Assembly (NCBI GenBank): GCA_030674455.1
Contig: JAUSGQ010000029.1
Coordinates: 6,625 to 70,624 of the forward strand
Direction of reading: 5' to 3'
Origin: a bacterium
GTDB lineage: Bacteria > Patescibacteriota > Minisyncoccia > Phycocordibacterales > UBA2100
Length of the DNA: 64,000 bases
A program made the position numbers and the translations under genes. The first letter of the stretch is position 1. Each line of letters begins with the position of its first letter. Positions 8,982 to 59,131 of the stretch are shown piece by piece. Under the pieces are notes generated by a model. The model was not told the origin of the DNA. It ran no database searches and saw nothing but the letters and a program-made list of their open reading frames with translations.

Positions 8982-9027
8982 CTATCTGCGCATATCCCAG
9001 AGGCAAGTCAAAACCATCAAGGCTCAA

Positions 9028-9054
9028 AACCATCAAGGCGACGCCTTGATGGTT
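9028..9054. repeat. 27-nt perfect hairpin (aaccatcaaggcg-a-cgccttgatggtt) at the 3' flank of the RAYT gene. A half-copy lies at 9011-9022
   Basis: Seen in sequence; an identical copy lies at 9762-9788. Confidence 0.9.
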
Positions 9055-9740
9055 TCAGTAAAATAAGGGTCATCGGTCGCGACACTTGCGTAATACGCGC
9101 GGGCGTCCTCGAGCATTTTGCGTGGCGCGGTATTGCGGTACACGTCAAACGCGTCGCGGGAAAGTATTGCGACGATGTCTCGTTTCTCACCCGCAAAATC
9201 CGGAAAACTCGAATAGCGATATCCGCGCAGGAATTTTTCCAGCCGTGCCATGTCGCGCACCGCTCCTTTTTTCCATCCCGGTGCGAAGCGCTCGGCAGGA
9301 TTGCAATGGATGTAGTTGACGACGTGCTGGAAGTAGAGGTCTTCCCCCACATGCCGCGAGCGAAACGGTTTCATAAAAAGATTTCCTGTTCGATCGTTTT
9401 TCTTGTTGAAGTACATCGTGTACGCGGTACCGAGTTTCTGCATAAAGCGTGTGATCCCGCCCTCCATGATCTCCTTGAGAAGCAGGTGAAAATGATTCGG
9501 CATGAGGCAGTATGCCCCGATAGATACAAGAGCATTGGAGCGTTCAAGGGAAATTATCTCGCTCGTCGTTCGCTCCGAGAGATTGCTCCGATGCAGCGTG
9601 TCCGTCGAGTTCGCCAGATAGAGAATCTGTAAGAAGCGTTCCGAATTATCCTCGCTTTCGAAGACTATCCGCTTCTCGATGCCTCTGTTGTAACAGTGGA
9701 ACCATTCGTCGATTTGGAATGGGACTGGACGTTGCGCCAT
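9033..9740 (-). mobile_element. IS200/IS605-type Y1 (HUH) transposase, REP-associated tyrosine transposase (RAYT)-like
   Basis: 'LMPNHFHLLL' HUH motif and 'YIHCNPAE'. Likely start MAQRPVPF (ATG at 9740). The ORF-track start at 9794 lies inside the flanking hairpin. Confidence 0.8.
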
Positions 9741-9761
9741 ACGGCAAGTGTACCACAAGAA

Positions 9762-9788
9762 AACCATCAAGGCGACGCCTTGATGGTT
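9762..9788. repeat. Second copy of the 27-nt perfect hairpin, immediately 5' of the RAYT gene
   Basis: Identical to 9028-9054. Confidence 0.9.
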
Positions 9789-9809
9789 CTTCAAGGAGCG
9801 TCGTGTGGA

Positions 9810-15858: not shown

Positions 15859-16431
15859 ATGAAAAAGCCCCTAATCACTGAGGTGGTAGCAATCGGGAGA
15901 AATCGGGAGCTTGGCAAGAACGATAAACTTCTGTGGCATATTCCCGATGACCTAAAACGCTTCAAGCGTCTGACTTTGGGGCATCCGATAATCATGGGAA
16001 GAAAGACGTTCGAATCAATAGTCGGGTACATCGGAGAACCGCTTCCGGGGCGCACGAACATAATAGTTACTCGCCAGACAAGCAAGTTCATCGCGGACAA
16101 TCCTTATTTGCTTATTCGCGCGAATAAGCAAATAGTTGGGAATACCAATTTATCTGCGCAGGATGGAGTGATTGTCGTTAGTTCCATCGAGGAGGGGATT
16201 GAAAAGGCGCGAGAGGAAAATCCGAAAGAAATTCACATCGGAGGCGGCGCGGAGATTTACGAACAAGCGCTTCCATATATAGACAAACTGCAGCTGACAA
16301 TAATCGACGACGAAAAACCAGCGGACACGTTTTTCCCGCCCTACGAACACATATTTACAAAAAAGGTTTTTGAGGAGTCGCGCGAGTGGAACGGCATCAA
16401 ATACAAGTGGATAGATTTAGAGCGCGATTGA
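15859..16431 (+). CDS. folA: Dihydrofolate reductase, with an extra ~20 aa relative to canonical DHFR that coincides with a 30-nt palindromic element
   Basis: 'LLWHIPDDLKRFKRLTLGHPIIMGRKTFESI...LPGRTNIIVTR' and 'IHIGGGAEIYEQALP' DHFR motifs. The insert 'NPYLLIRANKQIVGN' is encoded by palindrome 16105-16134. Confidence 0.85.
   Translation: MKKPLITEVVAIGRNRELGKNDKLLWHIPDDLKRFKRLTLGHPIIMGRKTFESIVGYIGEPLPGRTNIIVTRQTSKFIADNPYLLIRANKQIVGNTNLSAQDGVIVVSSIEEGIEKAREENPKEIHIGGGAEIYEQALPYIDKLQLTIIDDEKPADTFFPPYEHIFTKKVFEESREWNGIKYKWIDLERD
16105..16134. repeat. 30-nt perfect palindrome tatttgcttattcgcgcgaataagcaaata, in-frame within folA
   Basis: Core ttgcttattcgcgcgaataagcaa is shared with palindromes at 27159-27194 and 27504-27539. 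Confidence 0.9.
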
Positions 16432-16466
16432 GGCGCCAGCTATACCTTCTCCAATTAACCTTTCGT

Positions 16467-16572
16467 CATTGCGAGGAATGAGGAGGAACGACGACTTACG
16501 AAGCAATCCAGGGTATCAGAATCAGAACTCCTGGATTGCTTCCCGCCACGCTATGCTCGCGGTCGCAATGAC
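16467..16572 (+). ncRNA. Repeated structured intergenic element (nested stems gtcattgcga/tcgcaatgac and aagcaatccagg/cctggattgctt); copy 1 of 2; function unknown
   Basis: 75-nt core gaagcaat.cagggtat...agaactcctggattgcttcccgccacgctatgctcgcggtcgcaatgac repeated at 49973-50050. A C-to-T change gives a G-U wobble on the + strand. Confidence 0.35.
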
Positions 16573-16607
16573 AGGTAATAATTAGACATACGATGTCTAA
16601 CTTTGAT

Positions 16608-17651
16608 TTAGCGGTTTAGGCTTTTGAGCACTTTCAGATACAGTTTCTCGACGATTTCCTCTTGCGCTTTGCCCGTCTTTACATAATGGTCGAGGCCGGG
16701 CGCTGCGTTAATCTCCAGAATCCAGTAGTTCTTTGGCGGGTCAGAAATTATACCGTTTATCATCAGGTCTACGCCGCAGAGCCGGAGGCCCATGTCGCGG
16801 GTCAGCTTCACCGCGATCTTCTTGAACGCGGGATGAATCGTTGATGTAACGTCTACCGAATCCCCGCCAGTCGAGAGGTTTGCGTTATCTAAGAGAAAGA
16901 TTTGTTGGCCTTTTTTGGGAATCGAGCGCAAGCTCAATTTCTGACTCTTCAGCTTATTTGCTATGCGCGGGTCTTTGAATTTGATACGAGTGTCACGTTT
17001 CAATGCGTCAAAGGAGTGCTGCTTCTTTTTTAGCAATTGCAGAATTGTTGCCTTTCCATCGCCAACGACATTGAGCGGTATCCGTTCGTAGGCCGAAATG
17101 ATTGTCTTATCAAGAACAACGATGCGGTAATCCCGCCCGCTCACGGGTTTTTGCACGATGGCCACTTTGTCATTTCGGAATATGAGCTTCATCGCGCGAA
17201 AAAACTCGCGCTGATTGTGGACAAGGGCGACACCAACTCCTTGGCTGCCGCTATTTGGTTTTACGATAACCGGGAACCCAATCTTTTTTGCGTAACTCAA
17301 AGCCGCTTTTATGTCGCGTCGCGAGCCGATTGCCTCGCACCATTCTTGCGAAAAGAAAGTCTTGCCGCGCACTGCCGGATATCCCATGTGGCGCATGAAA
17401 AATGCCGCGTAATCTTTGTCCTTGGAAATATCCGAGGCGCCGACGGGGTTTAAATCAAGCGTATTGTAACGAAAGTATCTGTTATGGCCATCCTTGCCTG
17501 CCCGGCCAGGGCCTACCCGGCCAGGGTAGCGGATTTGGCCGGCGATTCTCCATTCCGGTTCTAGCACTACGCGCGCGCCAACTCTTGGCGCAAGGCGCTT
17601 CAGTATATTTGCAAGGATTAAATGTTCAGATTTGTACTTCACGCAGCGCAT
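16608..17651 (-). CDS. ATP-grasp family ligase (RimK / cyanophycin-synthetase-like)
   Basis: 'GFPVIVKPNSGSQGVGVALV...YRIVVLD...YWILEINAAPGLDHY' ATP-grasp signatures. Confidence 0.6.
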   Translation of the reverse strand: MRCVKYKSEHLILANILKRLAPRVGARVVLEPEWRIAGQIRYPGRVGPGRAGKDGHNRYFRYNTLDLNPVGASDISKDKDYAAFFMRHMGYPAVRGKTFFSQEWCEAIGSRRDIKAALSYAKKIGFPVIVKPNSGSQGVGVALVHNQREFFRAMKLIFRNDKVAIVQKPVSGRDYRIVVLDKTIISAYERIPLNVVGDGKATILQLLKKKQHSFDALKRDTRIKFKDPRIANKLKSQKLSLRSIPKKGQQIFLLDNANLSTGGDSVDVTSTIHPAFKKIAVKLTRDMGLRLCGVDLMINGIISDPPKNYWILEINAAPGLDHYVKTGKAQEEIVEKLYLKVLKSLNR

Positions 17652-17695
17652 ACTGCCAGAGTTGACCGTCTATTTCAATGGTAGTATGGTGAGGC

Positions 17696-20600
17696 ATGAC
17701 GCATCGGATTTCCGTCACTTCAAACATTCCCGACTCACGCGCACAAAATTACCTCCGCACATTGCGCGAACTTTTTCCTAAAAGCGGCCTCTCGGCCGCC
17801 TCTCTGTTGCAGGTTTACACAATAGACGCCGATTTGTCGGCGAGCGAACTGCGCGAGGCGGCGGAGCGGCTCACGAATCCCATCACGGAGCGTTTTTCAA
17901 CAACACAGATTCCCGCGCCGGATTCATATTCATGCGCGATCGAGATCGGATTCCTCGCCGGCGTTACCGACAACGTGGGCCACACGGCGCGGCAGACGAT
18001 AGAAGATTGCATAGGCAGAGAATTTGCTGAAGGCGAAAGCGTCTATTCTTCCTACATTCTTTTTCTCACGGGCGAGATAACATCGGAGATCGCGCAGAGC
18101 ATGGCTCGCGAGCTCTACAACCCGCTTATTGAGCGTGCGACCGTTTTCTCGGGCGTCCAAAAAGATTTTCCCATTGTAGTACCCAAAGTGAAATTGGCCA
18201 GCTCCGAAGCGTCCGTGGCTGAAGTTAATCTTAATGTGGATGCGGCGGAACTCGAAAAGCTGGGCAAGGAGGGAATCAAGGATTCCTCGGGCGTGCGCCG
18301 CGGGCCACTTTCACTCTCATTGAAACAATTGCAGGTTATACAAAATCATTTCTCAAAGCGTAAACGGAATCCCACTGACATTGAATTGGAATCACTGGCG
18401 CAGACGTGGTCGGAACATTGCAAGCACACGATTTTTGCAGACCCGCTGGATGAAATCAAAGAGGGAATTTATCGAAAATATATAAAGGGAGCGACGGGAA
18501 AAATAAGAAAAGAGAAGGCGAAAAAGCCCGTTAGAGGCACGGCCTCTAACGGGCCAGGGGATTTTTGCGTTTCGGTGTTTACGGATAATTCCGGAGCGAT
18601 CGCATTTGACGATAGATATTTGGTAACTCACAAAGTAGAGACGCACAATTCGCCCTCGGCGCTTGACCCCTTCGGCGGTTCCGTGACGGCTATTGTGGGA
18701 GTAAACCGAGACACGCTTGGGTTCGGGCTCGGCGCAAAACCGATAGTGAATGTATACGGATTTTGCGTTGCTGACCCGAACGATACGACTGCATTGTATC
18801 GGTATTCGGAAAGAAAACAGCCGCTCTTGCCCGCGCGAAGAATTCTTGAAGGAGTGGTTCGAGGGATTAATGCCGGAGGAAATCAGAGCGGAATCCCCAC
18901 GGCTCTCGGATTCCTCGCAGTTGACCCGAGTTATCGCGGCAAGCCCTTAATTTACGGGGGGACCATCGGCCTCATACCCCGTAAAAGCCCTTCGGGCTCA
19001 CGGGGCAGGCCCCGGAAACTATATGAAAAACGTGCTCAAGCAGGAGATTACATCGTTATGGTCGGTGGGCGAGTGGGAGCGGACGGCATTCACGGCGCGA
19101 CGTTTTCCTCCGAATCGCTTTCCAGCGGTTCACCGGCTACAGCAGTACAAATTGGCGACCCCATCACGCAAAAGAAACTCTCGGACGCGATTATCCGCGA
19201 AGCGAGAGACGCCGGATTGTATTCAAGCATTACCGACAACGGAGCGGGAGGGCTTTCCGGTGCTGTTGGTGAAATGGCAAAAGAATCGGGCGGGCCTTCG
19301 CCTCGCCGTAGCGGGCTTCGGCCTCGCGAAGGCGGGTGCATTGTCGACTTGTCGACCGTGCCGCTCAAGTATCCGGGACTCGCGCCATGGCAGATTTGGC
19401 TTTCGGAATCGCAGGAGCGCATGACGCTTGCTGTCCCGAAAAAGAACTGGACAGCTCTCAAAAAGATTTTCGACAGGCACAATGTTGAGGCGACGCGAAT
19501 AGGCACGTTCACGAATTCCGGAAGGTGTATTGTGAAATTTGGAAAGGAAAAAGTCATGGACATGGAAATGTCGTTCTTGCACGACGGCCGTCCCATCGAA
19601 GTTCAGAAAAGCAAAAAGCCCGCGCGCGTGAACAGCGAGCCGCCTGCGGCGGCTCGTTCCAGCGACCTTAGCGAATCGCTTCTCAAGATGCTCGCTCGTC
19701 CGAATATCGGTTCAATATCGTTTATTTCAGAACAGTACGACCACGAAGTGCAGGGCTCATCCGTCACAAAACCACTCGAAGGAAAGGGAAGAGTGAACGC
19801 GGATTCTGCCGTTTTGCAGCCATTGCCCGATACGAACCGCGGCATCGTCTTGGCGCACGGCTATTGCCCGTGGTATTCCGGCATCGACACATACGCGATG
19901 GCGGCGGCATCCATTGATACCGCCATACGCAACGCCGTGTGTGCGGGTGCTTCGCGCGATTACCTGGCAATTCTCGACAACTTCTGCTGGTCCAGCTCGA
20001 ACACGCCGGAGAGATTGTATGAACTCAAAGAATCGGCGCGCGCGTGTTTTGACATAGCGACGGCGTACGGGACGCCGTTCATCTCCGGCAAAGATTCGAT
20101 GTTTAACGATTTTCGCGGATTCACCGAAGACGGCAAAAAAATCCAAATATCCGCACAGCCAACGCTTCTCATCTCCGCTCTCGGCGTCATTCCGGATGTT
20201 ACAAAAGCGATGACGATTGATTTCAAACAAGCAGGCGACTTAATTTATCTTGTTGGAGAAACGAACGATGAACTCGGCGCATCTGAATATTTTGCGATGT
20301 TGGGAGAGGAAAAAGGGAATTTAGTTCCAATTGTTGATGCAAAGAAAAATGCCAGAATCTATGACGCACTCTCTCGCGCCATAAGCGGAAAAGGACATAC
20401 TCACATACTTGAGAATGTAAGGATGTTTGGCTGCGTGGCGTCGGCGATTAGCCTGGGGCGGGGAGGGCTTGGCGTAGCGCTCGCAAAGAGTTGTGTTGCC
20501 GGACAGCTTGGAGCGAGCGTCAATTTGAAGAATATACCGGGCGACGCAAAACAAGACGATTCCATTTTGTTTTCTGAAAGCCAGGGCAGGGTTTTAGTTT

Positions 20601-20776
20601 CCGTACGCGCCGGACACGAGAAAGAGTTCGAGAACATCGTACGCAAACTTCCATTCGTGAAAATAGGCACAACGACGGATAATTCAAATCTCACGCTTTC
20701 CATCGGGCGTCAATATGCCGATATATCGGTATATGAGCTTACGCAGGCTTATAAATCATTTTTTAAGAATTGGTAA
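17696..20776 (+). CDS. purL: Phosphoribosylformylglycinamidine synthase PurL with N-terminal extension (PurS/N-domain-like)
   Basis: 'LAQTWSEHCKHTIFADPLDEI', AIR-synthase-related repeats. Followed by purQ. Confidence 0.85.
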   Translation: MTHRISVTSNIPDSRAQNYLRTLRELFPKSGLSAASLLQVYTIDADLSASELREAAERLTNPITERFSTTQIPAPDSYSCAIEIGFLAGVTDNVGHTARQTIEDCIGREFAEGESVYSSYILFLTGEITSEIAQSMARELYNPLIERATVFSGVQKDFPIVVPKVKLASSEASVAEVNLNVDAAELEKLGKEGIKDSSGVRRGPLSLSLKQLQVIQNHFSKRKRNPTDIELESLAQTWSEHCKHTIFADPLDEIKEGIYRKYIKGATGKIRKEKAKKPVRGTASNGPGDFCVSVFTDNSGAIAFDDRYLVTHKVETHNSPSALDPFGGSVTAIVGVNRDTLGFGLGAKPIVNVYGFCVADPNDTTALYRYSERKQPLLPARRILEGVVRGINAGGNQSGIPTALGFLAVDPSYRGKPLIYGGTIGLIPRKSPSGSRGRPRKLYEKRAQAGDYIVMVGGRVGADGIHGATFSSESLSSGSPATAVQIGDPITQKKLSDAIIREARDAGLYSSITDNGAGGLSGAVGEMAKESGGPSPRRSGLRPREGGCIVDLSTVPLKYPGLAPWQIWLSESQERMTLAVPKKNWTALKKIFDRHNVEATRIGTFTNSGRCIVKFGKEKVMDMEMSFLHDGRPIEVQKSKKPARVNSEPPAAARSSDLSESLLKMLARPNIGSISFISEQYDHEVQGSSVTKPLEGKGRVNADSAVLQPLPDTNRGIVLAHGYCPWYSGIDTYAMAAASIDTAIRNAVCAGASRDYLAILDNFCWSSSNTPERLYELKESARACFDIATAYGTPFISGKDSMFNDFRGFTEDGKKIQISAQPTLLISALGVIPDVTKAMTIDFKQAGDLIYLVGETNDELGASEYFAMLGEEKGNLVPIVDAKKNARIYDALSRAISGKGHTHILENVRMFGCVASAISLGRGGLGVALAKSCVAGQLGASVNLKNIPGDAKQDDSILFSESQGRVLVSVRAGHEKEFENIVRKLPFVKIGTTTDNSNLTLSIGRQYADISVYELTQAYKSFFKNW

Positions 20777-21303
20777 TTATGTTTTCGCAGGAAAATGAGT
20801 CTAATAAAGAGCGCGTTATACCAGACCTGGTTGTTCAAACAGCAGCTTCTCCTGGAGAAAGTTATAAGATATGTGCAGATTTTATAGAAAAGATGCGCAC
20901 AAGATATCCAAAAAGAAATTATCTATTGAAAGGAATCATAGACAATCTCGACCCAGATAAACATCCGAGGACGCCGATTTCATATTTCGGTAAAGTTAAA
21001 GAAGAAATCGTGGGAATAATTGTAGGAGAAAAAGAAGGCGATGTGTTTAATGGTTATATTTTCCTTGTAGATCAGAAATATCAAAACACAAATGTTGCCG
21101 TGTCTCTTATGAGATCCCTTCAAGCAGACGAATCTACCATTAAACTGGTGCCAGCTCCTATTGGCATGCGTAAATATACCTCTCCAGAACAAAGAGAACA
21201 TCTAACACGCGCTCTCGAGCGATATTACAAGAGATTTGGATTCGTTCCTTCATCAAATCATACAATGGTTTGGCACAGAGGAAATCCGAAGAAAAACGTA
21301 TGA
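20770..21303 (+). CDS. Hypothetical protein, possibly GNAT-like acetyltransferase, inserted between purL and purQ
   Basis: AT-rich ORF by eye. Weak GNAT-like C-terminal 'YYKRFGFVP'. Overlaps both neighbours. Confidence 0.35.
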   Translation: MVIMFSQENESNKERVIPDLVVQTAASPGESYKICADFIEKMRTRYPKRNYLLKGIIDNLDPDKHPRTPISYFGKVKEEIVGIIVGEKEGDVFNGYIFLVDQKYQNTNVAVSLMRSLQADESTIKLVPAPIGMRKYTSPEQREHLTRALERYYKRFGFVPSSNHTMVWHRGNPKKNV

Positions 21304-22100
21304 AGAAACCTCAAGTCATAATATTTTCCGGTTACGGACTGAATACGGAGGACGAAACGAAAACCGCTTTTGAGATGGCGGGTGCTACTGCTGATATCGT
21401 GCACATCAACGACATCATCGCTCGCCCGGCAATTTTGAAGAAAGCACAAATTATTGTTTTTCCGGGAGGATTTTCTTATGGCGATGACACCGGCTCGGGC
21501 AAGGCGTATGGCAATCGCTTGAAACATCACCTCGGCAAAGAACTCGAGGAGTTCCTTTCGCGCGACACGCTTATGCTCGGTATTTGCAACGGATTTCAAA
21601 TAATTACGAGCGCGGGCATTTTACCGGGGGCGCTGATCGCCAACGACCCGACTCCGCAAGACGGAGGACGGGCAGGTTCTGCGCGCTACATTTGCAGATG
21701 GGTGGACCTCGAAATAAAAGGAGAAAGCCCGTGGCTCAAAGGAATCAAGACTATTTCAGTTCCTATCGCGCATGGGGAGGGAAAATATTATGTGCCAAAA
21801 GAAACACTCGAAAAGATAAAAAGCGAGGGGGCGATAGCGTTACAGTACTTTGGAGGTGAAACCTCCAAGCACCTAAATCTCCCGGCGAATCCGAACGGCT
21901 CGCTGGAAAATATTGCAGGCATCACCGGCTATGGAGGCCGCGTCTTAGGGCTCATGCCGCATCCCGAGCGCGCGGTTAGGTTCACACAGCTTCCGCACTG
22001 GACATATCTTCGCGAATCATATATACGCCAAGGGGCGCCCTTGCCACAGGAGGGGCCAGGACTGCAAATCTTCAAGAATGCGGTGCGATATTTCGATTAG
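21300..22100 (+). CDS. purQ: Phosphoribosylformylglycinamidine synthase glutaminase subunit
   Basis: 'MKKPQVIIFSGYGLNTEDETKTAFEMAG...LGICNGFQI...HGEGK' class-I GATase PurQ. Confidence 0.85.
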   Translation: MKKPQVIIFSGYGLNTEDETKTAFEMAGATADIVHINDIIARPAILKKAQIIVFPGGFSYGDDTGSGKAYGNRLKHHLGKELEEFLSRDTLMLGICNGFQIITSAGILPGALIANDPTPQDGGRAGSARYICRWVDLEIKGESPWLKGIKTISVPIAHGEGKYYVPKETLEKIKSEGAIALQYFGGETSKHLNLPANPNGSLENIAGITGYGGRVLGLMPHPERAVRFTQLPHWTYLRESYIRQGAPLPQEGPGLQIFKNAVRYFD

Positions 22101-22221
22101 TTTCAATTTGTGTAAGGAAAAAGCGTGATAGAGTTCTAAAGGATTATAGGATTACATGAAGTGTTCCCTAGGCCGCAAGCCTAACGGAATGGGCCAGAAA
22201 GCCCCATGATCCTTATGGTCC

Positions 22222-22893
22222 TTGATAAAGGAGATCGCAGTGAACAAGAGTGACAAATATTTAGTGAACAAAGTTCCGAAACAGATGCGTGAATCCTGGG
22301 AGCGCAATAACCCGGGAGTTCCCGTGCTTGAAGCGCTCCGGCTGGCAAGATATTGTGTCAGGGTGTATCAGTCAGCAATGACGGCCCTTTTTGTGGGCCT
22401 AATCGTCTCGTTTTGGACTTTCTATAATGCGAACGAAATATTCTTCATCCTCGCGTTTTACATGTGTACTCTTCCGTTGGCCGTAATTTTTTTGGTTCTC
22501 GGGATGGAGGTGCCGCAGGAGCCCTACGAGGCACGGATAGAGAAATTCTTGAAGGATCTGCAACAACTCGGCGAAACCCTCGTTTCGTTAATCGCAGAAG
22601 GTTGTGATCGAGAACGTGCAATAGCTTTGGCGGTAACAAGCCAGGCGGCAACTGCAGTTACGGTGCTTGACGCCGAATCTGCAGTAAAGGCAGTGGCAGA
22701 CTGTCTTCTGCGATGCGAGAAAGGCGGCACAATTGATGCGCTTGGCGCCGCGTGTACGCAGTATCAATCATTAAAAAAAGAACACAGGTCACTGTGTTCG
22801 GCTGCACTGCAGTTCGGATTGACGGACGGTAGTGAAGGCCCGTCATTCGCCGTCGCGGAGAAGCTAATAGCATCACGGCCACCAATGCAATAG
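22222..22893 (+). CDS. Hypothetical membrane protein
   Basis: ORF with two predicted TM helices. No recognised domain. Followed by a stem-loop (22903-22947). Confidence 0.35.
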   Translation: MIKEIAVNKSDKYLVNKVPKQMRESWERNNPGVPVLEALRLARYCVRVYQSAMTALFVGLIVSFWTFYNANEIFFILAFYMCTLPLAVIFLVLGMEVPQEPYEARIEKFLKDLQQLGETLVSLIAEGCDRERAIALAVTSQAATAVTVLDAESAVKAVADCLLRCEKGGTIDALGAACTQYQSLKKEHRSLCSAALQFGLTDGSEGPSFAVAEKLIASRPPMQ

Positions 22894-23011
22894 GCCGCTC
22901 GTAGGACGATGACGCCGCTCATCGCATCACGAGCGGCTTCATCTTTTACGACTAAATTGACTTATTAATTGGACGTTGAGAACTTCACTCTTTTAATGCT
23001 AAAATGCATTC

Positions 23012-23539
23012 ATGAATTCTGCTACTGGCTCACCTCTCGTCGGAATCATCATGGGCTCGGATTCGGATTTGCCAGTGATGAAAGACGCGGCGGAGATTCT
23101 CAAGGAATTTGGACTCGAAAGCGAAGTGAAGGTTCTCTCTGCTCATCGAACGCCTGACCAAGCTATTGAATACGCCAAGACTGCAGAGACAAACGGACTC
23201 AAAGTAATTATTGCTGGCGCCGGAGGCGCCGCACACTTGGCGGGAGTTACGGCGGGGAACACGGTTCTTCCCGTTATCGGTGTTCCGATTTCCACTAAAG
23301 CGCTCAAAGGCATAGATTCGCTCCTTTCGACTGCGCAGATGCCGCCTGGAGTTCCCGTTGCGACCGTAGCTATCAATGGCGCAAAGAATGCCGGCATCCT
23401 CGCGGCGCAAATTATCGCGGAAGGGAATCCGGAACTGCGGGAGAAATTGCGCTCATACAAAAAGAAAATGGAAAAGGACGTATTGGCAAAAACGGAAAAG
23501 TTGGCAGACATAGGATACGAAGCGTATCTCAATCAATGA
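23012..23539 (+). CDS. purE: N5-carboxyaminoimidazole ribonucleotide mutase
   Basis: '[15 protein letters not shown]...[11 protein letters not shown]...[15 protein letters not shown]' PurE motifs. Confidence 0.9.
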
Positions 23540-24669
23540 ACATGACTGCCAATGCCTATGCAATCTCCGGTGTTGATGTAGATATAGAAGCCGAAGCATC
23601 GCGCATAATGTACGAGGCCTCAAAGCAGACGTTCGCGAATCGCGACGGGCGCATCGGGGCTGTCGTCACGCCATTCGATGATTTCGCCGGATTGAAAATG
23701 GTTTCTGTCGAAAATCTACCGCGCGGCAGTTTTATGTCGGTGGGTTTTGATACGGCGGGAACAAAAGTAGAAATCGCGCAGAGAGTAGGGAAGCACGACA
23801 CTATCGCGTTCGACCTGCTTGCGATGGTGTGCGACGACGCGATTTTGCGTGGGGGCGAGCCCATCCTAGTCGGGACGAATCTGGATATAAAGAGTCTGGG
23901 CAGTGATGAGAAATACCTGCCAATTATCCGCGAGCTCGCTGTCGGATATGTCAACGCTGCTCGTGAGGCAAATGTCGCCATCATCAACGGCGAGATTGCC
24001 CAAATGGGTTCGCTCGTGCATGGGTGGGGAGATTTTCCGTATCACTGGGGCGCGGCCTGCGTGTGGGTGGCGCGTAAAGAAAAGTTATTTACCGGCGAAG
24101 AAATAAAAAAGGGTGATTCAGTCGTCGTTCTTCGCGAGAATGGTTTTCGCAACAATGGATTTTCTCTGATCAGAAGAATATTCGAGGAAGCGCACGGCGC
24201 AGAGTGGCATACCATTAAGCACGGGGCTTCAACATTAGGATTGCTCGCGCTCACTCCGTCGAAGATTTACTCGCGATTTGTTGTCGGATTGCACGGAGGA
24301 TTTGAATCGGAAGGTTCGTGCAAGATTCACGGTGTGGCGCACATTACCGGCGGCGGCATTCCCGAGAAGCTTGGGCGCGTACTACGCAGAAGCAAGCTCG
24401 GCGCAAACCTGTCTAATCTATTTGAACCCGCGGAGATAGTTTCTCACTGCCAAAAGCTTGGAAATATTCCAGACATGGATGCGTACCGCGCTTGGAACAT
24501 GGGGCAGGGGATGGCGCTCGTTACGCCGGAGCCCGACAAAGTGCTTGCGGAGGCAAAATCAGCTGGAATTGATGCACAGATAGCGGGTGAAATAACGGGC
24601 GAACCGCAGGTTATAATCGAAAGCAAAGGGGTCGAGAACCCTGGACAAAGATTAGTATTTGATGTATAA
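23536..24669 (+). CDS. purM: Phosphoribosylformylglycinamidine cyclo-ligase (AIR synthase)
   Basis: AIRS N/C domains: '[12 protein letters not shown]', '[18 protein letters not shown]', '[11 protein letters not shown]'. Confidence 0.85.
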
Positions 24670-24675
24670 TTATAT

Positions 24676-25647
24676 ATGACTGAAGTTCTCAAAGAAACCA
24701 ACTTTTCCAACCTCGGTGAAAAGAAAACGGGCAAAGTCCGCGACATTTACATACAACCCGAGCGATTGGTGCTCGTGACGACCGACAGACATTCTTCGTT
24801 CGACCGCATCATCGCTCACATCCCGCACAAGGGCCAAGTGCTGAATCAAATCAGCGCTTTTTGGTTTGAGCAGACAAAAGATATTATTCCCAACCACGTA
24901 CTCGCGATTCCGGACCCCAACGTGACCATCGGTAAGAAATGCACGATGGTTCCCGTTGAAGCTGTTGTGCGCGGATATGTCACAGGCGTTACCGGTACAT
25001 CCATTTGGACACGGTACTCAAAAGGAAAACGGGATTTTGGCGATATTGTCTTGCCGGACGGATTGAAGAAAAATCAGAAATTGCCTCACCCGATATTTGA
25101 CCCGACGACAAAAGAAGATACGCACGACAGGACGCTTTCGCTTAAAGAAATGGTCTCAGAAGGATTGGTTACAGCGGAAATCTTGGAGCAGATACAAAAA
25201 ACGGCTCTCGCATTGTTTGCGCGAGGAGAAGAAATCGCAAAATCACGCGGACTTATTCTTGTGGATACGAAGTACGAATTTGGTTTAGACAAGTCTGACT
25301 TGTCGGAATCCGACAAGTCAGACTTGTCTAAAGGGCGATTGGTGTTGATTGACGAAATTCATACGCCCGACTCCTCGCGCTATTGGCAAGCGGATTCCTA
25401 CGAAGAGCGATTTTCAAAAGGCGAAGAGCCCCAGTATTTTGATAAGGAATTTTTACGCCTGTGGTTCAGGGAGCATTGCGACCCCTACAAGGACGCGACA
25501 CTTCCGGAGGCGCCTAAAGAGCTCGTGCAGGAGCTTTCGCGACGCTACATCCAAATGTTCGAGCAGATTACGGGAAAGAAATTCGTACCAGGCGAAGAGC
25601 CGATAATTCCGCGCATGGAGAAGAATTTATCAGCGTATAGCGTCTAG
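24676..25647 (+). CDS. purC: SAICAR synthetase. Contains a short in-frame tandem duplication (KSDLSESDKSDLSK, nt about 25290-25330)
   Basis: 'GKVRDIY...LVLVTTDRHSSFDR', 'VVRGYVTG' SAICAR synthase motifs. Confidence 0.85.
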   Translation: MTEVLKETNFSNLGEKKTGKVRDIYIQPERLVLVTTDRHSSFDRIIAHIPHKGQVLNQISAFWFEQTKDIIPNHVLAIPDPNVTIGKKCTMVPVEAVVRGYVTGVTGTSIWTRYSKGKRDFGDIVLPDGLKKNQKLPHPIFDPTTKEDTHDRTLSLKEMVSEGLVTAEILEQIQKTALALFARGEEIAKSRGLILVDTKYEFGLDKSDLSESDKSDLSKGRLVLIDEIHTPDSSRYWQADSYEERFSKGEEPQYFDKEFLRLWFREHCDPYKDATLPEAPKELVQELSRRYIQMFEQITGKKFVPGEEPIIPRMEKNLSAYSV

Positions 25648-25665
25648 CTTCTAGCGTCTAGAAAT

Positions 25666-27132
25666 ATGACTCAATCAGAAAATGCAAAGAACTACCAGCT
25701 GACCGCGATTAGTTCTGTTGACGGACGTTATCGAGATTTACTTGAACAGTTTGGGGAACGGTTCAGTGAATTTGCCCTCATCCGCGCGCGCATCCGTGTT
25801 GAGTGCGAATATCTTTTGGCGCTTTCAGAAGAAAAAGAATTGGGAATCAGGAAATTATCCGCAGAAGAGAAAGAGATTCTTGTAGGACTTTTTCGCATAT
25901 CGATTGAAGACGCGCGAATCGTGAAAGCAATCGAGAAAGACGGCTACGAAGGAATTCCGGCTACGAATCATGACGTGAAGGCAGTTGAGTACTTCATTAA
26001 GAAAAAGCTCGCAAAAACATCTCTCGCGGATGTTTCTGAATATGTGCATTTCGCGCTTACGTCGGAAGATGTAAATAATTTTGCGTACGCACTTCTTCTT
26101 GCCGACGTTCTGGACATGGAGATAATTCCTGCGATTGATGCCGTTAGGAGCAACCTGAATGACATGTCTTCGAAATACGCCGCAACGCCGATGCTTGCGC
26201 GGACGCATGGCCAACCGGCTTCACCCACGACTTTCGGAAAGGAAATGCGTGTGTTTGAGTCTCGCATTGCCCGCCAGCTTCAGAAACTCAAGTCGAGTAG
26301 TATTCTGGTAAAATTTGCCGGCGCGACAGGGAATTACAACGCACATGTTGTTTCAGCTCCTAAAGTGGATTGGCAAATTTTCAGCGAGAAATTTATAGAA
26401 CGGTTCAATGCGTCCGGCCCACAAGGTGCGACCTTGGGGAATTCTAAAGGTCGCACCTTAAAGGCCGGTATACGGCTCGAACTGAACAAAGCCACAACTC
26501 AAATAGAGCCTCACGACACCTATGTGGAACTTTTCGACACAGTTCGGCTCATCAACACGATACTCACAGGATTTTCGCAGGACATGTGGCGATACATTAG
26601 CGACGGATGGATTACTCAAAAGCCGAAGGCCGGAGAAATCGGTTCTTCGGCGATGCCGCACAAAGTTAATCCGATTGATTTTGAGAATGCGGAAGGGAAT
26701 TTGGGAATTGCGAATTCCCTCTTTGAACATTTTTCTCGAAAGCTACCTATCTCTCGATTACAGCGCGACCTCTCTGATTCTACGGTAGAGCGCACGTTCG
26801 GAACCGCGTTCGCCCACTCTCTTATCGGTTATAAATCGCTCCTAAAAGGGCTCGGCAAGGTCAGCGTAAACGAAAAGGCGATGCTTGAAGACCTGCAAGG
26901 GCACCCGGAAGTTCTTGCGGAAGCATTTCAGACCGTTCTGCGACGCGAGGGCGTGGAGGTTCCATACGAGAAACTAAAAGACCTCACGCGCGGGAAACAA
27001 GTAACGCTAGATGATTTCGCGAAATTTATCGACGGATTATCGGTAGACGAGAAAGTAAAGAAGAATCTAAAAGCATTAAGGCCTGAAAACTACATAGGCC
27101 TTGCCGAGAAGATAGCGAAAGGGAAGAAGTAA
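25666..27132 (+). CDS. purB: Adenylosuccinate lyase
   Basis: 'FALTSEDVNNFAYALLL', 'MPHKVNPIDFEN' lyase_1/ADSL motifs. Confidence 0.9.
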   Translation: MTQSENAKNYQLTAISSVDGRYRDLLEQFGERFSEFALIRARIRVECEYLLALSEEKELGIRKLSAEEKEILVGLFRISIEDARIVKAIEKDGYEGIPATNHDVKAVEYFIKKKLAKTSLADVSEYVHFALTSEDVNNFAYALLLADVLDMEIIPAIDAVRSNLNDMSSKYAATPMLARTHGQPASPTTFGKEMRVFESRIARQLQKLKSSSILVKFAGATGNYNAHVVSAPKVDWQIFSEKFIERFNASGPQGATLGNSKGRTLKAGIRLELNKATTQIEPHDTYVELFDTVRLINTILTGFSQDMWRYISDGWITQKPKAGEIGSSAMPHKVNPIDFENAEGNLGIANSLFEHFSRKLPISRLQRDLSDSTVERTFGTAFAHSLIGYKSLLKGLGKVSVNEKAMLEDLQGHPEVLAEAFQTVLRREGVEVPYEKLKDLTRGKQVTLDDFAKFIDGLSVDEKVKKNLKALRPENYIGLAEKIAKGKK

Positions 27133-27158
27133 CGTCCACCAGTTGCAATTTGAGACAT

Positions 27159-27194
27159 ATCTACTTGCTTATTCGCGCGAATAAGCAAGTAGAT
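27159..27194. promoter_or_regulatory. 36-nt perfect palindrome atctacttgcttattcgcgcgaataagcaagtagat, 15 nt upstream of the ArsR-type regulator gene. Candidate operator or mobile hairpin
   Basis: Perfect dyad symmetry. The same core recurs at 27504-27539 and 16105-16134 with compensatory outer-arm changes. Confidence 0.6.
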
Positions 27195-27208
27195 GATACA
27201 ATGAGCAG

Positions 27209-27475
27209 ATGCATGAAATAGAATTGGAACGGCAGCTCAAAGTGCTAGGCAACAGACGGAGGCTTGCTATCCTGAATCTTTTGCGCAAGCGAAAGGATGT
27301 AAACGTAAGCGATATAGCAGACGCCATCAAGCTTTCACTTACATCAACATCGAGGCACTTGATTATGCTTGAGCGAATGGGGTTCGTCGAAAAGGAACAA
27401 AAAAGTCTTAACGTGTACTATCGAATCACTTCTACTCCAGCAGATACGTTGCGTGATGTGCTTAAACTGCTCTAG
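27209..27475 (+). CDS. ArsR/SmtB-family HTH transcriptional regulator (88 aa)
   Basis: 'GNRRRLAILNLLRKRKDVNVSDIADAIKLSLTSTSRHLIMLERMGFV' winged-HTH ArsR pattern. Confidence 0.75.
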   Translation: MHEIELERQLKVLGNRRRLAILNLLRKRKDVNVSDIADAIKLSLTSTSRHLIMLERMGFVEKEQKSLNVYYRITSTPADTLRDVLKLL

Positions 27476-27503
27476 CGATGCCCCACGTGTGAATTTCGAT
27501 GTT

Positions 27504-27539
27504 CAATACTTGCTTATTCGCGCGAATAAGCAAGTATTG
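27504..27539. repeat. 36-nt perfect palindrome caatacttgcttattcgcgcgaataagcaagtattg, 3' of the ArsR-type regulator gene
   Basis: Seen in sequence. Confidence 0.9.
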
Positions 27540-27600
27540 AGAATATGAAGAAGAAGGAATGATGAATAAAAGTGATGAAGAAAACAGACTTTCAGTTAAT

Positions 27601-28377
27601 TTATTGCCGGAGGCCTAAGCCCGTGCGGATGAAGTACCAGTTTACGGCTATGAGAATCGCGGTGAGCGCTCCTAAGACGCCGAGACTGGTCATTAGAGAT
27701 ACGTCTGATACGCCCATAAAACCATCGCGGAAGCCGTTTACCATGTAGAAAATGGGGTTTGCAAAAGTCAATTTCTGCCAAAGCGGCGGGAGCGCTAGCG
27801 CCGAATAGAAAACGCCGCCGAGATACACAAGCGGAGTCAAAACGAATGTCGGTACGATGGTGATTCCGTCAAAACTTTTTGCATAGATGCCGTTTACAAG
27901 CCCGGCCAGGGAAAATAACATGCTGGAAAGAATTAAGAATATGAGAATTGTAAACGGTTGCGTTAGAGGCAATGAGGTGAAAAAGGCAGAAATAATTATG
28001 ACCAAAATTCCTATCGTTATTCCGCGCACCATGCCGCCGGCGACATATCCCGCGATTATGACCCACACGGGTGTCGGCGAGACGAGTATTTCATCGATGT
28101 TGCGTGAGAAGAATTTGGCCTGAAAGAAAGTCGTTGCCACGTTTGAAAATGAGTTGGTGACGACCGCGAGCATCACGAGCCCGGGGACAACGAACGTGAT
28201 ATACGGGTATCCGCCGATTTCTCCGATGCGGCCTCCGAGAACTTTTCCGAATACGAGAAAGTAGAGAACTGAAGTGATTATGGACGGCAAGAATGTTTGC
28301 GGCCAAATGCGGAATATGCGAACAACGTCTTTTCGGACGATGGTGTAAAACGATGTGAGCATTTGAGAAGGAGTCAT
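27601..28377 (-). CDS. ABC-2 type transporter permease
   Basis: Six-TM profile. 'ABC-2' family signature region 'TFANPIFYMVNGFRDGFMG'. Confidence 0.75.
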   Translation of the reverse strand: MTPSQMLTSFYTIVRKDVVRIFRIWPQTFLPSIITSVLYFLVFGKVLGGRIGEIGGYPYITFVVPGLVMLAVVTNSFSNVATTFFQAKFFSRNIDEILVSPTPVWVIIAGYVAGGMVRGITIGILVIIISAFFTSLPLTQPFTILIFLILSSMLFSLAGLVNGIYAKSFDGITIVPTFVLTPLVYLGGVFYSALALPPLWQKLTFANPIFYMVNGFRDGFMGVSDVSLMTSLGVLGALTAILIAVNWYFIRTGLGLRQ

Positions 28378-28389
28378 AGCGTATAGCGT

Positions 28390-28755
28390 TTAGCGATTAG
28401 CGTTTAGTTCTAATTTCTTAATCATGACTGACAGCATCTTCTGAACTTCTGTTAACAAATTCTTCGCCTTATCATAGTTAATACGCTTGTGTGCAGATTC
28501 CGCGATCAGAATTTGCGTTTCTAGCTCGGCGGCTGAACCATCGGCTATGCGCAAAAAGTGCAGGAAATCTTTTTTTGTGTTCCGTCGATGGCCCTCTGCA
28601 ATATTTGATGGGATTGAAACAGCCGCCCGGCACATCTGACTCTGGAGCCCAAATAATTCGCGCGGTGGAAATTCGCTTGTTCTAGCGTATACCTCTTTTG
28701 CAAGCTCTACAGCCTTTTGCCAGACAATCAGTTCTTTGAACGATGTGATGTACAT
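28390..28755 (-). CDS. Four-helix-bundle protein (23S rRNA intervening-sequence protein family), flanked by 13-bp inverted repeats agcgattagcgtt / aacgctaatcgct
   Basis: 'ELIVWQKAVELAKEVYARTSEFPPRELFGLQSQMCRAAVSIPSNIAEGHRR...GSAAELETQILIA' is the canonical 4HB family pattern. Inverted repeats at 28392-28404 and 28777-28789. Confidence 0.8.
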   Translation of the reverse strand: MYITSFKELIVWQKAVELAKEVYARTSEFPPRELFGLQSQMCRAAVSIPSNIAEGHRRNTKKDFLHFLRIADGSAAELETQILIAESAHKRINYDKAKNLLTEVQKMLSVMIKKLELNANR

Positions 28756-38704: not shown

Positions 38705-38985
38705 GGTGCAATTCTAGCATTTTCTTGGAAAGCCCGAGGAGACACCTCCCCCTTCCCATCCTTCGCCAAGGCTTCGGAGGGCGCCGTGGGTGAGGAGTCA
38801 CCTCGGAAACTTCGGAATCCTACAAGGTGCGACCTTAAAGAGCGACTCCCAAGGTCGCACCTTGGGTGCCACCAAATCAAGGACTCCCCTTGATTTTTGG
38901 GTTATCCACACCTTATGGCGGTTCACCTTGCATTCATGCTAGGATATGCTATAATTATATTAATTACGAGCTAAATTAATATAAT

Positions 38986-56298: not shown

Positions 56299-56350
56299 AT
56301 AGGGAAATAGATGAAATTGAGGATGATTGAGATACTTCCCGTTTGAGTTG

Positions 56351-56386
56351 TTCTATTCCAGTGTTTTGCAAAACACTGGAATAGAA
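56351..56386. promoter_or_regulatory. 36-nt perfect palindrome ttctattccagtgttttgcaaaacactggaatagaa, 6 nt upstream of the ArsR-type regulator gene
   Basis: Perfect dyad. Further copies at 56646-56675 and 57479-57530. Confidence 0.6.
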
Positions 56387-56391
56387 CTAGA

Positions 56392-56676
56392 ATGTTAAGA
56401 ATGGCAAATCGCAGTTACCGCACCATAGAACGCATCGTGAAGGGTTACGCCAACCACCGGCGGTTAGAGATATTAGATTTATTGCGCAAGGAACCGGAGC
56501 TTTCTGTGGAGGACATCTCTGAAAAACTGAAGATCGGGTATCAGAATGCTTCCGACCATATTCGCAAGCTTTCAATCGCGGGCCTTGTGGCCAAGCGGAA
56601 CGAGGGTCCAAGCGTTCGACACAAGCTTACGCCTCGGGCAGAGTCTATTCTAGTGTTTTGCAAAACACTGGAATAA
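56392..56676 (+). CDS. ArsR-family HTH transcriptional regulator (94 aa). Its last ~10 codons are encoded by a copy of the palindrome
   Basis: 'HRRLEILDLLRKEPELSVEDISEKLKIGYQNASDHIRKLSIAGLV'. Confidence 0.7.
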   Translation: MLRMANRSYRTIERIVKGYANHRRLEILDLLRKEPELSVEDISEKLKIGYQNASDHIRKLSIAGLVAKRNEGPSVRHKLTPRAESILVFCKTLE

Positions 56677-56717
56677 GAAGAGCGGCGGATGAGATTGTGA
56701 TATTTGCTTCATGTGCT

Positions 56718-57467
56718 ATGGAAACTTCAATCCGGCCAAAATACGATTTGGACAAAATAAAGTTTTCCACCGGTTCGCCGACATGGGAACGCGCGGTTGA
56801 ATTGTTCGAGAAGGGAAAGGTAACGAAATTTCAGGACAATGAAGGCTCATATTCGGCAACTGTCATTGGCACAAAACCGTATGAAGTTTGGGTATCTGCG
56901 GAGAAATTCGACGTAGGAGACTGCAATTGCTATCTCGGGCAGAAGGATGAATTATGCAAACATCTTGTTGCACTTGCGATACGGGTTGTAACTGGTGGCA
57001 ACTCGCTTTCTGAGAAACAAAAAAAGATGGTCGCTGTGCCTATTTGTAGTGGCAGGGAGGGAGAACTGGATAAGGAGAAGTTACAATCTGTGCAGACCGC
57101 AATTTCCGTGGCAATGAAATGTATCAAGGCCTATAACGGACCATCACGCACGTGGTTTATATATCAGGCTTCGCTCGCGGAAGGATGCACTCGCCTTGCC
57201 GCCACTTTTTCCGAATTACCCGTGAGCGAGCAAACTGCACAAATCGTCTTAAAGACACTTTTGCGTCTTGATGAAAAGCTTTGCCGAGGCGGAGTGGATG
57301 ATTCCGATGGCGCTGTCGGCGGTTTCATAGAGGACGCGGTCAGTATGCTCCTAGAGTATGTGAAATTAGAGCCATCATGCATAGGCGCATTTGAAATACT
57401 CAAAGGTCAATCGACGTGTTTCGAGTGGGAAGAGCCGCTCTTGAAAATCTCCAAAAGAGAAGGGTAG
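56718..57467 (+). CDS. SWIM zinc-finger domain protein
   Basis: 'DCNCYLGQKDELCKHLVA' = C-x-C-x9-C-x-H SWIM signature. Start taken at METSIRP. Confidence 0.6.
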   Translation: METSIRPKYDLDKIKFSTGSPTWERAVELFEKGKVTKFQDNEGSYSATVIGTKPYEVWVSAEKFDVGDCNCYLGQKDELCKHLVALAIRVVTGGNSLSEKQKKMVAVPICSGREGELDKEKLQSVQTAISVAMKCIKAYNGPSRTWFIYQASLAEGCTRLAATFSELPVSEQTAQIVLKTLLRLDEKLCRGGVDDSDGAVGGFIEDAVSMLLEYVKLEPSCIGAFEILKGQSTCFEWEEPLLKISKREG

Positions 57468-57478
57468 CTTACGACTTC

Positions 57479-57530
57479 TCTATTCCAGTGTTTTGCCCAC
57501 CAGAGGTCGGCAGGCAAAACACTGGAATAG
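57479..57530. repeat. Third copy of the ccagtgttttgc...gcaaaacactgg palindrome, with an 18-nt insertion in the loop
   Basis: Seen in sequence. Confidence 0.85.
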
Positions 57531-57670: not shown

Positions 57671-59131
57671 TTGTGGGATGATTTGTCTATGATTCCTCCC
57701 GAAAAAGTGACTCTATTGGAAAGTCTGGTATTTGGGCAGCGAGTGGCTGAAGAAGAGCCCCGTCTGGAGGAGTACTTTGTTGAAACTTTGCTTTGGCGAA
57801 AGATTTTGCGTGGGGAAATAGACATCGTGTACGGAATGAAAGGGTCCGGAAAAAGCGCAATTTTCCATCTTCTGACAACTGGTCGAAATATGCCCGCTGG
57901 CATCAGGGTAATTCCTGCGGAGTATACTCGTGGAACGCCGGTTTTTAATGCAATAAAAACCGATCCACCTCCATCAGAAGTTCAGTTTGTGTATCTCTGG
58001 AAGCTGTATGTACTTTCACTTATTGCGAACGACGCCGAGATATTGAAAGTTCTCAAAAGCGATCACGCAGAACTTGTAGCAGAACTAGGTTCGGTGGGTG
58101 TAATTGGTGAGGATAAGGGTGAAATTCTAAAAAAAGCTCTACGGTATGTAGATACCATAAAAATACCCAATCTCGTCGAAGTGGGAATTAGTCACTCACA
58201 GGAGGCAGAGGACAAAAGAATAAATGTAGATCGAGCGATGGACGTACTTAATCATATTTTATCAAAAACAGGAAGTAACGTGTGGGTCTTGTTCGATCGA
58301 CTGGACTCGGTGTTTGATGATAACTCAGGTCTTGAAGAAAACGCACTCCGGGCATTATTTAAGACCTACAGAGATTTCTCAAGATACGATCATATATGTC
58401 TCAAGATATTTCTTCGTACCGATATCTGGAAAGCATTAACCAGTAAGGGATTTCGGGAGGCAAGTCACATAACGCAATCCGAAACAATTGAGTGGTCGGA
58501 GGTAAACATCGTAAACCTCATTGTCAGGCGCATTCTTAGCAATCCAAATATTGCCACTTTTTACCATGTTGTGCCAGAGCAAGTATTGGCCAATTATGAC
58601 GAACAGAAGAAGCTCTTTTATAGAATATTTCCAGATCAAATTGACGCAGGTTCAAGAAAGTCGGAAACCATAAGATGGTTGATGACGCGGGTGGGGGATG
58701 GAACACGACAGGTTGCACCTCGCGAACTCATTCATCTCTTAAATCAGTCGAAAGATGAGCAAATCAAAGCGTTGGAGCTTGGTGAATCTGTACCTGATGG
58801 AGAACATCTCTTTTCACCAGCAGCTATGAAAAGAGCATTGCCCGCAGTATCTCAAGTTCGTCTGGAACAAACTATCTTTGCTGAATACCCCAATTTGAGA
58901 CAGCACATTCTCATGCTGGAGAGCGAGAAAGCAACACAAACTCTCGAAACATTATCGAAAATCTGGAACGTGGATGAAGGGGAAACACTTAAAATTGCGT
59001 CAACCCTAGTTGAGATTGGTTTCTTTGAGCTACGTGGAGAAAAGAGAAAGCCGGAGTATTGGGTACCCTTCCTCTATCGGCCTCATTTAAAATTGATTCA
59101 GGGCAAAGCGGAGGAGGATGAATATGCTTAA
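57671..59131 (+). CDS. Uncharacterised P-loop NTPase (Walker A GMKGSGKSA, Walker B VWVLFDRLD); candidate defence/toxin-system ATPase
   Basis: Walker motifs seen. No confident family assignment. Operonic with a zeta-toxin-like gene. Confidence 0.5.
   Translation: MWDDLSMIPPEKVTLLESLVFGQRVAEEEPRLEEYFVETLLWRKILRGEIDIVYGMKGSGKSAIFHLLTTGRNMPAGIRVIPAEYTRGTPVFNAIKTDPPPSEVQFVYLWKLYVLSLIANDAEILKVLKSDHAELVAELGSVGVIGEDKGEILKKALRYVDTIKIPNLVEVGISHSQEAEDKRINVDRAMDVLNHILSKTGSNVWVLFDRLDSVFDDNSGLEENALRALFKTYRDFSRYDHICLKIFLRTDIWKALTSKGFREASHITQSETIEWSEVNIVNLIVRRILSNPNIATFYHVVPEQVLANYDEQKKLFYRIFPDQIDAGSRKSETIRWLMTRVGDGTRQVAPRELIHLLNQSKDEQIKALELGESVPDGEHLFSPAAMKRALPAVSQVRLEQTIFAEYPNLRQHILMLESEKATQTLETLSKIWNVDEGETLKIASTLVEIGFFELRGEKRKPEYWVPFLYRPHLKLIQGKAEEDEYA

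Follow-up and report, generated by a model that had tools for sequence, protein, structure and literature searches.

Why should one perfect DNA palindrome stand on both sides of a small regulator gene and again inside the coding sequence of an essential enzyme? The question is raised by a 64,000-nucleotide stretch of a patescibacterial genome (Patescibacteriota, Minisyncoccia, Phycocordibacterales, UBA2100; GenBank assembly GCA_030674455.1, contig JAUSGQ010000029.1, positions 6,625 to 70,624 of the forward strand), hereafter the window, in which two copies of the palindrome bracket a gene for an 88-residue protein of the ArsR/SmtB winged-helix family and a third lies in folA, the gene for dihydrofolate reductase (DHFR). 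An earlier, sequence-only reading of this DNA saw in the palindromes hairpins under selection, spread perhaps as a mobile element of the MITE (miniature inverted-repeat transposable element) or REP (repetitive extragenic palindromic) kind, and offered as an alternative that the element is the operator of the ArsR-type protein and had been copied. Our analysis points to the alternative as the better supported half, as the type of site co-varies with protein subfamily at loci found through the protein: the palindrome is probably the cognate box of the adjacent ArsR-type protein, a putative autoregulator, and appears to have multiplied in Kaiserbacteria as perfect palindromes, some entering coding sequence. 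Literature searches found no prior description of such a system.

Results

The 24-nt core TTGCTTATTCGCGCGAATAAGCAA has three exact matches in the window, at 16108, 27165 and 27510, where none is expected by chance and none arises in 100 shuffles; allowing up to three mismatches adds no further match in the window. Each match is the centre of a longer perfect palindrome, of 30, 36 and 38 nt respectively, so the core and the first two lengths given by the sequence-only reading stand while its third, 36 nt, is corrected to 38. The second and third copies have 30 nt in common (TACTTGC...GCAAGTA), from which the first differs by a single compensated pair (TAT...ATA). The upstream box (27159–27194) lies 26 nt past the purB stop codon, with the start of the ArsR-type gene (27209–27475, plus strand) 14 nt further on, and has orthologues in L022, L027, L057, L063, L065 and L077–L080. 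The downstream box (27503–27540) follows the stop of that gene by 27 nt and separates it from a convergent ABC-2 permease gene (27601–28377, minus strand), giving a box-to-box spacing of 345 bp. The intragenic copy (16105–16134) is in-frame in folA. As DNA the palindromes form hairpins of −11.5 to −15.9 kcal/mol (z-scores −4.9 to −6.3); no terminator-like site with a GC-rich stem and T-run was found between 27050 and 27650, and no known RNA family of Rfam matches anywhere in the window.

The 88-residue protein, the presumed box binder, matches Pfam HTH_5 (E=3.8e-10) and NCBIfam NF033788 (62.8 bits, cutoff 55). Among solved structures HlyU and PagR come nearest to it, and it is akin to these and to SdpR, all non-metal members of the family. 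It contains no cysteine and therefore no ELCVCD-type metal site, and the residues of the metal sensors (Cys-rich alpha3 site or alpha5 site) are missing.

The site-gene-site arrangement extends far beyond this locus. In an unbiased test set, the best 80 homologue loci drawn from metagenomes by protein similarity alone, a TTC-N4-GAA site lies within 110 nt upstream of the homologue gene at 65 of 72 loci, just downstream at 68 of 75 and on both flanks at 58 of 67, against a background rate of 0.07 per 120 nt. The commonest distance between the two sites is ~295 bp, and the cassette geometry, with one box 14–50 nt before the start and the other just after the stop, is conserved across Patescibacteria, which bears out the hairpin-gene-hairpin layout first read from the window. 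Of the 72 loci recovered through the DNA pattern, 14 have an ArsR homologue beside the palindrome by tblastn.

The site follows the protein in kind as well as in place. The general motif is CT[T/A]ATTC-N4-GAAT[T/A]AG; in the LS[FL]T...MLE subfamily, the clade of the window, its centre is always GCGC, while the LSFK...AVL subfamily has GTGA, TCAC, GCAC or GTAC centres and TCTCTAATTC arms. In relatives, folA is followed by a 48%-identical paralogue flanked by TGTCTAATTC-N4-GAATTAGACA, and a second ArsR-type paralogue in the window itself (94 aa, 56392–56676, plus strand) is flanked by a palindrome family of its own, GTTCTATTCCAGTGTTTTGC|GCAAAACACTGGAATAGAAC, at 56350–56387 and 56646–56675, with a third copy (57480–57530) following the next gene, which is SWIM-zinc-finger-like (56658–57467). 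That site type tracks protein subfamily in this way indicates that the palindrome is probably the cognate box of the protein. Distant relatives have asymmetric sites, with complementarity at background (0.27 at position 7, 0.24 at position 10), in which the half-site motif is nevertheless kept. The retention of the motif where pairing is lost argues that the conserved function is recognition by the protein, not hairpin formation. The 20-nt core is identical at syntenic sites beside the ArsR-type gene, though the neighbouring genes are only ~75% identical, and together these two results run counter to the earlier view that the hairpin was selected rather than the primary sequence.

A scan for the exact 20-nt core, one genome per species, recovered 72 loci, all in Patescibacteria. 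Kaiserbacteria-like genomes carry ~3–14 exact-core copies (at most 12–14 per assembly), and some of their assemblies reach 11–14 where Harrison-, Wolfe- and Uhrbacteria contigs have 1–2. Nearly every copy is a perfect palindrome, of 22–46 nt. Across different species many solo sites have the same gene families as neighbours, from which it follows that they are old and have been retained. The exact core was found in none of the viral contigs searched, and a phage origin was rejected; an origin as restriction site or CRISPR is disfavoured by conservation over 20–30 nt and by the absence of arrays.

About 9% of copies lie inside real genes, eight in all: folA, mnmA, queA, purN, a murD-like gene, alr, a ppsA-like gene and one for an FAD oxidoreductase. 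As the sequence-only reading had asked of coding-region copies, all eight are in-frame, reading Y-x-LIRANK-x-I, and they share this one frame because the other two hold TAA or TAG. Compared with the solved QueA structure (PDB 1yy3), the copy in QueA is a clean insertion of 17 aa, and the PurN copy brings ~7–11 extra residues; in MnmA the net length is unchanged, so genic copies are not all simple insertions.

The folA copy can be followed most closely. The window gene (15859–16431, plus strand) encodes a DHFR of 190 aa that keeps the catalytic Asp and the fold and is identical to a protein from a metagenome-assembled genome, its close relatives being Candidatus Kaiserbacteria; the window itself belongs to a Kaiserbacteria genome. 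Most Parcubacteria DHFRs have 166 aa and a short loop, RDPNWKYEGV. Alignment places the insertion, ~23 aa, between T68 and D69 of the E. coli enzyme, in the loop joining β-strands C and D, with the palindrome inside it coding for Y83-LLIRANKQ-I92. In an AlphaFold model (mean predicted local distance difference test score 79) the fold is preserved and the insert region (~residues 73–103, 16075–16167), missing from most orthologues, sits between strands 67–70 and 104–107 as two weak helices and a disordered stretch. The proposal that YLLIRANKQI is encoded in-frame within a surface-loop insert is thus upheld. Orthologues that lack the palindrome differ in insert length, and an assembly chimera can be rejected, as the identical in-frame palindrome turns up again in independent assemblies from NCBI, ENA and Logan and so is no assembly artefact.

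The insert, SKFIADNPY[LVMF]LIRANK[QH]IVG..., is common to a subclade 84–89% identical to the window protein and to one relative 73% identical. Within it the arms of the palindrome change in step: TTG/CAA (L, Q) in the window is GTG/CAC (V, H) at the orthologous site of L055, and L074 shows the half-step GTG/CAA. The palindrome codons have no synonymous differences where ~0.32 of identical-residue codons differ gene-wide, a figure that is suggestive only. A neighbour-joining tree of DHFR minus the loop intermixes the loop states, with a resolution too weak to decide between one and several origins of the insert. The reading best supported by these comparisons is that the folA copy is an old, tolerated in-frame insertion whose symmetry is kept at the DNA level through paired substitutions. 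The loop itself is a hot spot for insertions: other relatives have a non-palindromic 19-aa insert there, and folA of a sister lineage (L157, 3001–3519) carries a different small inverted repeat in it, ATATCGACC-TCGTA-GGTCGATAT, encoding YIDLVGRY.

Symmetry of the outer arms was measured over 105 distinct exact-core copies. Positions 11–13 are symmetric in 97 of the 105, compared with an expected fraction of 0.22 if the arms were independent; the other 8 are one step away from symmetry. Double changes at pairs 10, 11 and 12 number 18, 45 and 30, with only 0–1 G.U pairs and 1–6 unpaired cells, and the covariation score (0.284 versus 0.136) is matched by none of 500 shuffles. Complementarity is 0.88 at position 15, falls gradually outward and reaches background by about position 22. 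Covariation without G.T wobble, together with this gradual decay, fits a symmetrising process acting on the DNA as well as it fits selection. Quasipalindrome template switching, described by the Ripley model and studied in E. coli reporter systems, is predicted to turn imperfect inverted repeats into perfect ones and to let them grow outward without selection; it is a mutational process, not a genomic element, and a candidate explanation of the symmetry seen here.

Other palindromes occur in purC and purB. The window purC (24676–25647) contains a 49-nt perfect palindrome (25284–25332) encoding KSDLSESDKSDLSK, a 12-aa in-frame insertion not in the close relatives L057 and L027 and unique in sequence among the data compared; it looks like the product of a local inverted duplication. 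In purB (25666–27132) an imperfect inverted repeat with 22-nt arms (26414–26468) encodes GPQGATLGNSKGRTLKA in-frame; L063 and L057 share this repeat, the purB of L027 lacks it, and it has AAGGTCGCACCTT in common with a repeat at 38823–38864.

The boxes also mark places of rearrangement. The interval from purB to the ArsR-type gene holds a single box in the window; in relatives it contains differing segments of 0.6–2.2 kb with PD-(D/E)xK-like and HNH-like genes (L022 5258–7472, L063 3652–4556, L057 2596–3164, L027 2090–2685; box-bounded in L022 and L063). In L158 a solo chimeric box stands downstream of folA where relatives have a box-paralogue-box cassette, and the upstream box of L057 is chimeric, its left and right sides coming from two variants. 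Homologous recombination from box to box would suffice to account for the segment swaps, the solo box and the chimeric box.

Further small elements were noted at or near boxes. In two genomes (approximately L073 476–552 and L069 864–940) a structured element of ~73 nt occupies the identical box position GCGAA^TA^AGC, where TA appears to be duplicated, and in one relative it forms a 75-nt in-frame insertion within the folA palindrome; it is perhaps a small mobile element with the box as its target. In L051 (334–357 and 390–429) and L069 (975–1010), boxes that belong to two different families are ~35–120 nt apart. Elsewhere in the window, an open reading frame (ORF) of 253 aa (9033–9794, minus strand) has an HUH-type NHFHLL motif and a weak, below-cutoff match (E=3.9e-9) to the REP-associated tyrosine transposase (RAYT) model NF047646; it is flanked at 9027–9055 and 9762–9788 by AAACCATCAAGGCG-A-CGCCTTGATGGTTT, a palindrome unrelated to the ArsR box, in the classical REP-RAYT-REP layout. 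Directly after the second ArsR cassette comes the gene for a 486-aa Sll1717-family P-loop ATPase (57671–59131, plus strand; NF047389, 208 bits), which weakly matches a model for an anti-phage protein, and a 23S rRNA-intervening-sequence protein gene (PF05635, four-helix bundle; 28390–28755, minus strand) separates the ABC-2 permease gene from an ABC ATPase gene.

Discussion

If the palindrome is, as we think probable, the cognate box of the ArsR-type autoregulator, the 88-aa protein would bind the inner half-sites as a dimer and repress its own gene. The dispersed boxes would be additional sites for the protein, serving as roadblocks or in organising the chromosome and not as classical promoter operators; they would have arisen at new places through the copying of a box already formed, and their perfect, variably extended symmetry would come from hairpin-templated correction by quasipalindrome template switching or from selection. 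Several observations weigh against this account. The link between protein and box is drawn from adjacency and co-variation alone. Copies are biased to gene ends and not to promoters, which is unusual for a regulon (19 are in convergent, 31 in co-directional and 6 in divergent contexts, as classed by crude in-house ORF calling), and the genes beside them are functionally so mixed that a coherent regulon was rejected. The upstream box shows no recognisable sigma-70-like promoter. The symmetric positions 11 and 12 vary freely among copies of one genome, which dimer binding does not explain, and the exact-core search skews the set of copies toward conserved cores.

The same placement could suggest a selfish REP- or MITE-like palindrome without host function, mobilised in trans by a transposase, for which the ArsR-type gene is a landing place or a domesticated partner. 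Expansion confined to some lineages would suit such an element, as would a preference for gene 3′ ends like that of REP elements and in-frame insertion into unrelated enzymes, for which there is precedent in Rickettsia (PMC10969869). TA is nearly invariant at positions 14–15 and the flanks fit CTAG or TTAA targets, and the ~73-nt element and the RAYT-like gene with its own palindromes show that small mobile repeats exist in these genomes. Yet the cassette and the co-variation of site and protein reach far beyond the expanding lineages, and the solo sites shared between species are in many cases old. No transposase is associated with the box and no parent insertion sequence was found; a target duplication would be indistinguishable from the palindrome, as the TA at positions 14–15 could be either, and no filled and empty pair with exact borders was found. 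With no transposase, no target duplication that could be called unambiguous and no pair with an empty site found, mobility of the MITE type, which the sequence-only reading had suggested, is not supported, and we consider this explanation unlikely.

Two other explanations were weighed. The palindromes might be crossover sites at the borders of exchangeable cassettes, as in an integron or invertible segment, served by a site-specific recombinase or by homologous recombination; the differing box-bounded segments beside purB, the solo box of L158, the chimeric box of L057 and the great diversity of genes flanking the cassette all accord with this. The boxes, however, have no linked recombinase gene, their perfect symmetry gives them no polarity, plain homologous recombination between repeats of 30–46 bp explains the deletions without a dedicated system, and the in-frame solo copies and the conserved protein partner are left unaccounted for, so that we judge crossover sites to be decidedly improbable. 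A function of the transcript, as terminator, 3′-end stabiliser or RNase III site, with arm pairing kept by selection on the RNA, is more doubtful still. The stability of the hairpins (calculated as DNA), the preference for gene 3′ ends and the strong covariation of the arms are what it would predict, but there is essentially no G.U intermediate among the 93 double changes at pairs 10–12, no U-tract follows the stem, no Rfam family matches, the core is conserved and never covaries, distant family members keep the motif while losing the pairing, and the symmetry is strand-neutral, which transcription is not.

The proposed box of an autoregulator has partial counterparts in known systems. Like the autorepressors of the ArsR/SmtB family, of which HlyU, PagR and SdpR are non-metal examples, the protein matches the family model and has a TTC...GAA-type inverted repeat just upstream of its own gene. 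It differs from them in lacking metal-site residues and in having a second box directly after the stop codon, boxes that are perfect palindromes of 30–46 nt, and ~10 extra copies per genome that are biased to gene ends, some of them inside coding sequences. The short palindromic repeats, mainly past gene ends, and the partner gene flanked by two copies recall REP/REPIN elements and their RAYTs, except that the flanked gene here encodes a winged-helix DNA-binding protein in place of an HUH/Y1 transposase, and that the copies are perfect where REPs are imperfect, are sometimes intragenic and are far fewer.

Integron attC sites are imperfect palindromes with extrahelical bases and a linked IntI, whereas these boxes are perfect; no integrase was present among the ORFs read near boxes, whole genomes not having been searched. 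The closest precedent for in-frame palindromes are the Rickettsia palindromic elements, repeats found in-frame in unrelated housekeeping genes, at tolerated positions and with a conserved peptide (PMC10969869). Those are of ~100–150 bp and have no known partner protein, in contrast to the 22–46-nt box of Patescibacteria with its putative one.

Beyond an autoregulator and its box, it is conceivable, though we hold it only tentatively, that protein and box form a self-propagating partnership resembling RAYT and REPIN without the transposase, in which the cassette moves, solo boxes seed new sites, some of them within essential genes, and symmetrisation of the DNA forces paired residue changes in the host proteins, or else that the boxes serve to organise the chromosome in a new nucleoid-associated system of Patescibacteria. 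The pairing of a protein with a ~30-bp DNA site proposed here can be tested across a phylum in which very few regulators have been studied. It presents a putative transcription-factor site that behaves as a repeat family and enters coding sequence, and in folA a clear natural example where correlated substitutions in an essential enzyme (L/Q, V/H, M/H) would be dictated by the symmetry of the DNA and not by the function of the protein. In the sampled genomes small in-frame palindromes have hot spots in the loops of conserved enzymes (folA, purB, purC and queA), a point of importance for annotation and for inference from alignments throughout the group.

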